Shown one piece after another: positions 34,336 through 34,674 of a DNA stretch of 64,000 nt. The notes beneath the pieces are model-generated. The model was not told where the DNA came from. It saw nothing but the letters and a program-made list of their open reading frames with translations, and ran no database searches. The stretch is from contig CM000151.3 of NCBI GenBank assembly GCA_000004695.1, positions 2,304,001 to 2,368,000 of the forward strand, in the 5' to 3' direction. The stretch is from Dictyostelium discoideum. Its lineage: Eukaryota. Numbering within the stretch: position 1 is the stretch's first letter; each line of letters begins with the position of its first letter. Position numbers and translations under genes: made by a program.

Positions 34336-34373
34336 TTTTTTTTTTGGTAACGGTCCTAGTTTCGTATTTTTTT

Positions 34374-34386
34374 ATTCTTTTCCCAT
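34374..34386 (+). promoter_or_regulatory. DUSE-like motif (tTCCCATAAg), candidate upstream element of small ncRNA genes
   Basis: ttcttttCCCATAAgtgcgc matches the reported Dictyostelium upstream sequence element core [A/T]CCCA[C/T]AA, quoted from memory. It lies ~90 nt upstream of a large inverted repeat. Confidence 0.3.
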
Positions 34387-34467
34387 AAGTGCGCTTTTCT
34401 TAAAAGATTGAATATAATATATAGATAAATTATAATAAAATAGAAACTCTTTATATTTTATATTACT

Positions 34468-34592
34468 CTCCGTTATTCCTCTGTTAGAGGTGTCATTGTT
34501 TTATATTTTATATAACAACACTATTATTCCTCTGGTAATATAAAATGTAAAACAATGGCACCTCTAACAGAGGAATAACGGTGTTGTAATAG
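34468..34592. repeat. imperfect palindrome: two ~46-bp inverted arms (3 mismatches) around a 25-bp spacer
   Basis: Arm L is ctccgttattcctctgttagaggtgtcattgttttatattttatat. The reverse complement of arm R is caccgttattcctctgttagaggtgccattgttttacattttatat. The spacer holds a partial third copy (ttattcctctg). Confidence 0.85.
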
Positions 34593-34674
34593 TATAAAGG
34601 CACCACAATATAAAAATTAGTGGAATAATAGAGACCATTTTAAAACTCACATGCATTATTATAATTATTATTAT

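Follow-up and report, generated by a model that had tools for sequence, protein, structure and literature searches.

The probable ddi-mir-7104 hairpin of Dictyostelium discoideum: a palindrome that may derive from an inversion inside a minisatellite

What is the large, near-perfect palindrome that lies between two genes on chromosome 2 of Dictyostelium discoideum? It was noticed in a 64,000-nt stretch of this chromosome (assembly GCA_000004695.1, contig CM000151.3, positions 2,304,001 to 2,368,000, forward strand). This stretch is referred to here as the window, and positions are window positions unless the chromosome is named. A reading of the letters alone (the sequence-only reading) had proposed a locus for a structured non-coding RNA, preceded by a DUSE-like motif, and had named a MITE-like transposon as the alternative.

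The palindrome is found in the intergenic spacer at 34180-35145. The left neighbour, on the - strand, is a homologue of TFIP11/STIP (ORF 31396-34047 plus a short first exon). This protein contains GCFC, G-patch and TIP_N domains according to Pfam, and it is entered in public databases as septin and tuftelin-interacting protein 1 homologue. The right neighbour is the 3' end of a - strand gene whose exons have no Pfam match. Of the two names given to these genes by the sequence-only reading, TFIP11 on the - strand is upheld by Pfam, and the label fsl received no confirmation from it. Two short ORFs overlap the locus, and for these there is nothing on record in public assemblies. An association of the locus with a tRNA was looked for and none was found. 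GC content is 21-32% over 34350-34650, which forms a 300-nt island between long A/T runs of 6-12% GC. A separate inverted repeat is present upstream of the fsl-like gene, in the intergenic spacer there, with 52-nt arms at 37692-37743 and 37791-37842 that are 94% complementary and separated by 47 nt; it is AT-rich without being a pure homopolymer.

Inverted-repeat search and RNA folding both recover the palindrome and its capacity to form a hairpin. The 5' arm (34470-34516) and the 3' arm (34535-34581) are each 47 nt long and are 94% complementary, and the terminal loop between them is 18 nt (34517-34534). The count of three mismatches between the arms was right in the sequence-only reading; the arm length of 46 bp and the spacer of 25 bp given there are revised to 47 nt and 18 nt. 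Two of the mismatches, 34493/34558 and 34504/34547, are U-G wobbles in RNA of the + strand, and the third is A-A. The window contains 94 inverted repeats; among the 25 longest the palindrome is the only one whose arms are not low-complexity A/T runs. Two further segments that had been linked to the arms are also confirmed. A third, partial arm copy lies in the spacer (TTATTCCTCTGGTA at 34524-34537, compared with TTATTCCTCTGTTA at 34473-34486). The fourth segment is the outer 3' extension of the stem, TGTTGTAATAGTATAAAGG at 34582-34600, which pairs with the outer 5' extension at 34448-34469, a partial inverted copy of a repeat spacer (TTTATATTTTATATTAC). Both are further pieces of a 50-nt repeat, described below. 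With this outer pairing the whole stem-loop in + strand RNA is ~153 nt long (34448-34600). It is followed by a small stem-loop, CCAC...GTGG, at 34601-34623 on the + strand.

The predicted folding energy of 34444-34636 on the + strand is -82.8 kcal/mol, compared with -30.4 +/- 3.8 for shuffled sequences (z = -13.8). Spread over 193 nt this amounts to about -0.43 kcal/mol/nt, below the threshold of -0.2 kcal/mol/nt that was applied to miRNA precursors. RNA of the - strand folds less strongly (z = -9.2), since the two wobble positions of the arms can pair as U-G on the + strand only.

A known miRNA gene has been mapped to the same part of the chromosome. The primary transcript of ddi-mir-7104 is given as DDB0232429 (chromosome 2):2338372-2338767 on the + strand, its T-rich start motif TTTTTTTTTTTTTTGTTTTTTTTTG ends at G 2338346, and the first poly(A) read is 26 nt downstream of this motif (Liao et al. 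2018, RNA Biol 15:937, Suppl. Table S3). Chromosome positions are converted to window positions by subtracting 36 x 64000, by which 2338346 becomes 34346. When either strand of the window is searched, the pattern T{10,}GT{8,11}G has a single occurrence, and this ends exactly at 34346. It belongs to a T31-G-T10-G tract on the + strand (34304-34346), which by coordinates and pattern is the mir-7104 start motif. The printed motif has one T fewer than this tract, within a homopolymer, and is otherwise identical to it; the interval given for the motif in Table S3 is just 16 nt long. Since 2338346 converts to the final G of this unique tract, the primary transcript predicted from poly(A) RNA-seq coverage (Liao et al. 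2018) is placed at 34372-34767 of the window, where it encloses the hairpin. There is no other strong hairpin in this interval, and a long T-run occupies 34677-34717 in the 3' part of the transcript. The annotation of mir-7104 is on the strand that the G-U wobbles favour.

With high confidence, then, we identify the palindrome as the hairpin precursor of ddi-mir-7104, from the coordinates and the motif string rather than from a sequence match. Pieces of the arms gave no string match in the full-text literature searched, in the supplement of Liao et al. 2018 or in those of Edelbroek 2024; the negatives from the supplements are genuine, since their tables print other miRNAs, as a positive control showed. 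The expectation of a structured non-coding RNA at this place holds for the + strand, on which pri-mir-7104 has been mapped to the same place (Liao et al. 2018). The element is thus already on record as a D. discoideum miRNA gene.

An independent D. discoideum assembly carries the locus in the same orientation, at ~2.352 Mb of a 3.6-Mb contig. The TFIP11 homologue has two RefSeq accessions from strain AX4, on an 8.48-Mb AX4 contig. By the coordinate match, the window is 2,304,001-2,368,000 of AX4 chromosome 2 (DDB0232429 / NC_007088). The part of chromosome 2 that carries the locus is presumably the one duplicated in AX3/AX4, and the two accessions fit such a duplication. A locus inside this duplication should be present in the AX4 genome as a second, identical copy of the miRNA locus.

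The 17 miRNAs described by Avesson et al. (2012, RNA 18:1771) reportedly include ddi-mir-7104. All 17 of the miRNAs in that set are strongly reduced in drnB- cells, and poly(A) reads span the predicted hairpins at 14 intergenic miRNA loci, which are listed in Table S3 (Liao et al. 2018). A later study retained seven high-stringency miRNAs in D. discoideum, and mir-7104 is not among them (Edelbroek 2024); for this reason it may be a hairpin-derived source of siRNAs instead of a bona fide miRNA.

The explanation that we favour, with a probability of about 0.85, combines the mir-7104 hairpin with a Pol II-type transcript, processing by DrnB and a young inversion in a 50-nt minisatellite. Its first step would be a Pol II-type primary transcript on the + strand, starting after the T-rich tract at about G34346 and reaching about 34767. 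The start motif assigned here, which ends at G34346, is typical of Pol II pri-miRNAs in D. discoideum. The transcript would fold into the near-perfect ~153-nt stem-loop at 34448-34600, which the Dicer-like nuclease DrnB would cut into 21-nt miRNAs. Transcription and dependence on DrnB are taken from the literature, and we infer which part of the stem would yield the mature miRNA.

The history of the hairpin was approached through orthologous loci, which were retrieved by means of the TFIP11 protein and comprise ~70 kb of related sequence (loci L001-L005). Over 34345-34660 the window and locus L001, from D. discoideum assembly GCA_054883475.1, agree at 100% of positions, and the palindrome is therefore not an assembly artefact. 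Locus L005 comes from an assembly that is also labelled D. discoideum (GCA_054859385.1). It is 92.5% identical to the window over 7.4 kb, coding sequence included (compared with 27339-37745), and about 97-98% identical at aligned coding positions. Its divergence far exceeds that of L001, and from these sequence identities L005 may belong to a deeply divergent lineage or a cryptic species.

The L005 locus keeps the T-run, the block around the DUSE and the 3' flank, including the small 3' stem-loop. Between these it contains 4.9 direct copies of a 50-nt unit, with a 92% match between copies, and no inverted repeat longer than 20 nt. In D. citrinum (L002) synteny is kept, the spacer is ~260 nt long and a homologue of the locus is absent. 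In D. purpureum and P. violaceum no homologue was found within 6 kb.

Each repeat unit consists of a 24-nt AT-rich spacer and a 26-nt core, CCTCTAACAGAGGAATAACGGTGTTG. The core is found at 34561-34586 on the + strand of the window. It is the same in the direct unit of the window and in the five units of L005 (positions 3452-3694 of that locus), and so is invariant in 6/6 intact direct units. There are 0/130 differences in the cores compared with 9/120 in the spacers (Fisher p = 0.0012), and this pattern of an invariant core among varying spacers hints at some constraint. The core contains a mini-hairpin of 5 bp with a 3-nt loop and two YAACNG strings, which may resemble Myb sites. None of the explanations discussed here accounts for constraint on the core in a lineage that does not have the long hairpin.

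The window allele is built from the same units in a different arrangement, with ~1.7 inverted units and one direct unit. From left to right it consists of a leader, a partial inverted spacer, an inverted core with its inverted spacer, a truncated inverted core, a direct spacer, a direct core and the 3' flank. The 5' arm is one 50-nt unit in inverted orientation, with a mini-palindrome, CCTCTGTTAGAGG, at 34478-34490, and the 3' arm is one unit in direct orientation. The loop is formed by a truncated second inverted unit, AACACTATTATTCCTCTG, which is broken inside its mini-palindrome (CCTCT/AGAGG) and represents a rearrangement scar. The locus is a minisatellite (VNTR), with 50-nt units arranged head to tail and a copy number that varies between lineages.

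Comparison of the alleles points to a lineage-specific inversion inside this minisatellite as the probable origin of the hairpin, because L005 has direct repeats without a palindrome and D. citrinum does not have the locus. The inversion would have occurred in the AX4 lineage, and the hairpin would be young at the DNA level. In comparison with L005, truncated units are confined to the window allele, which is therefore taken as the derived one; the ancestral state assigned here depends on such rearrangement scars, as the comparison comprises two alleles and the locus is missing from the outgroup. About 1.7 units would have been inverted, which would leave an inverted unit facing a direct one. 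All three mismatches between the arms fall on spacer variants that also segregate among the L005 units, for example ATG and ATA. Inversion of units that already existed and were not identical is a better fit to this than a new inverted duplication. Both junctions have short homologies, TTTAT on the left and TG on the right. Template switching at short homologies would be compatible with these junctions and is our conjecture. For other D. discoideum miRNAs too, the orthologous spacer of the sister species is shrunken and does not contain the locus (Edelbroek 2024).

The hairpin could also be without function. The palindrome would then be a structural variant of a minisatellite that has no role, and any small RNAs from it would be by-products of Dicer acting on spurious transcripts, without targets. 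We regard this as a real possibility, although not the likelier outcome. Turnover at the locus is fast, with three states in three close lineages, and the hairpin is absent from the divergent L005 assembly. The exclusion of mir-7104 from the stringent 2024 set and the normal development of the drnB knockout agree with an absence of function (Edelbroek 2024). The developmental regulation of D. discoideum miRNAs (Liao et al. 2018) speaks against it, as does the hint of constraint given by the 26-nt core. This explanation is compatible with the identification of the locus as mir-7104, in that it disputes the function of the hairpin and not its identity.

The DUSE-like motif raises the question of whether a second type of promoter is involved. 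The octamer TCCCATAA is present at 34381-34388 on the + strand, as the sequence-only reading had reported, and it fits exactly both published forms of the DUSE consensus, [AT]CCCA[CT]AA and [AT]CCCA[AT]AA. The distance from the octamer to the base of the extended hairpin downstream is 59-66 nt, close to the published spacing of ~60-63 nt between the element and the transcription start or mature 5' end. A gene of the snRNA or Class I type could thus be driven by the DUSE, start at about 34444-34450 and produce a short, non-polyadenylated hairpin RNA, either instead of the pri-miRNA or alongside it. Such a product would escape poly(A)-selected libraries, and an A/T-rich, TATA-like stretch is present at about -30. 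From the frequencies in the window, we estimate the chance of an octamer at the right place on either strand as roughly 0.2-0.7%.

Part of the case for this promoter comes from the L005 allele. The alignment of positions 34369-34456 to it has 84 matching and 4 mismatching positions and an insertion of 5 nt, whereas 34346-34368, just upstream of the DUSE block, is scrambled. The octamer and the ~70 nt after it contain 1 substitution, compared with an intergenic mismatch of 6-7% (Poisson p ~0.08), a difference that is no more than suggestive of selective conservation of the block. The octamer is not enriched in the window (4 occurrences of WCCCAYAA compared with ~10 expected, and 14 of WCCCAWAA compared with ~23), and its position alone is informative.

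Against a DUSE-driven gene, the octamer lies inside the pri-miRNA. Published poly(A) reads begin at 34372, which is 9 nt upstream of the octamer, and so the DUSE is not needed to explain transcription. No Rfam family reaches its gathering score anywhere in the window. The Class I RNA model (RF01414) has no match at its gathering score or at E <= 10 in the window, and L005 gave the same result. At permissive thresholds only generic animal and plant miRNA-hairpin models matched, all below their gathering scores and in L005 as well, because any long perfect stem scores against them. The motif CTTACAGC is absent from the window, and with no RF01414 match either, Class I RNA was rejected as an identity. 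Runs of T4 and T5, 10-25 nt past the predicted start in both alleles, argue against transcription by Pol III. As the main mechanism, a gene of the snRNA or Class I type is therefore not supported, on the grounds of the upstream read start and the missing Class I signature. We consider a DUSE-driven transcript at this locus improbable; the octamer may fit the consensus by chance or may act as a secondary element of the promoter. Histone stem-loop, snoRNA and U6-like identities were also considered for the mini-palindrome, and these have no Rfam support at E <= 10.

The window contains a second exact copy of the DUSE octamer TCCCATAA on the - strand (60576-60569). This copy is at the edge of an ORF-free island (60340-60576) with up to 38% GC within an AT-rich spacer, and a near-duplicate of its context, gccatcacataa, is found ~50 nt downstream. 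The island has no Rfam match, its fold is no better than that of shuffled sequences (z = +1.5), and it has no similarity to the mir-7104 locus.

The DUSE and the minisatellite might also be parts of one older unit. According to this idea, to which we likewise give little credence, a DUSE-associated unit with tandem 26-nt cores, each able to form a CCUCU-AAC-AGAGG stem-loop, would have been turned into a Dicer substrate by one inversion in the AX4 lineage. The five direct repeats in the divergent lineage would be the surviving earlier form. If this were true, the locus would show the birth of a miRNA from an existing small-RNA gene, caught in the act. In that case a short hairpin transcript, non-polyadenylated and able to bypass the first step of processing, might even now be driven by the DUSE.

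The transposon named by the sequence-only reading would be a small, non-autonomous foldback or MITE-like element whose TIRs form the hairpin, with miRNA production as a secondary effect, and it is highly improbable: it would suit the long inverted arms built from sub-repeats, the short inverted termini of both alleles (CTCTTTAT...ATAAAG, with a 20-nt, 80% inverted repeat in L005), the absence of the whole block from D. citrinum and the derivation of other D. discoideum miRNAs from the thug-S repeat, but there is no second arm copy in the 64-kb window with 3 mismatches allowed, no further copy in the ~70 kb of related loci beyond the orthologous site and no target-site duplication at the 34447/34600 or 34470/34581 boundaries, and at the corresponding site in L005 these units form direct tandem repeats, so that the apparent TIRs are a local rearrangement. 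The repeat core had 0 matches in JGI metagenome contigs. In the published annotation mir-7104 is treated as a single-copy intergenic locus, apart from the multicopy thug-S loci (Liao et al. 2018).

For the most part this locus is a rediscovery of ddi-mir-7104 from raw sequence, and little is gained from it as a new element. To our knowledge, the mir-7104 literature examined describes neither an origin from a minisatellite nor a hairpin-less allele, nor the presence of a DUSE octamer within the pri-miRNA. Amoebozoan miRNAs are reported to have a very fast turnover and unknown modes of origin (Edelbroek 2024). The value of the comparative result is modest and lies in a testable mechanism, in which an inversion in a minisatellite would place a near-perfect hairpin downstream of an existing promoter. 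As a natural allele without the hairpin, that of the L005 lineage could be used as a control for loss of the miRNA. A small question about promoter use is posed by the presence of a conserved DUSE octamer within a Pol II pri-miRNA.

The locus can be compared with several known systems. With ddi-mir-7104 it shares chromosome, strand, coordinates and a T-rich start motif ending in G; both are intergenic and single-copy, with a hairpin inside a mapped primary transcript, and in a comparison that covers these features no difference is known. DUSE-dependent non-coding RNA genes of Dictyostelium, which include those of the spliceosomal snRNAs and of Class I and Class II RNAs, have the same octamer ~60 nt upstream of a structured RNA segment, but at this locus the mapped transcripts begin upstream of the octamer. 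Class I RNAs (RF01414) are 42-65 nt long and have a short terminal stem and an 11/12-nt motif, CCTTACAGC(C)AA. In contrast, the RNA described here is ~150 nt or longer, has no CCTTACAGC(C)AA and does not match the covariance model.

Foldback and MITE-like elements, as well as the thug-S miRNA loci, resemble the locus in having inverted arms with internal sub-repeats that are a source of small RNAs. The locus differs from these in being single-copy in the sequence searched, in having no target-site duplication and in having an allele that consists of direct repeats only. The locus also resembles the young miRNAs of Edelbroek 2024 and plant proto-miRNAs. The hairpins cited in that context are longer, at over 200 nt, compared with a stem of ~47-66 bp here. 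In plant proto-miRNAs the arms are an inverted duplicate of a target gene, whereas at this locus they are local minisatellite units inverted face to face. In common with both groups, the locus has a long, near-perfect stem and is lineage-specific, with no counterpart in the orthologous spacer of the closest species.
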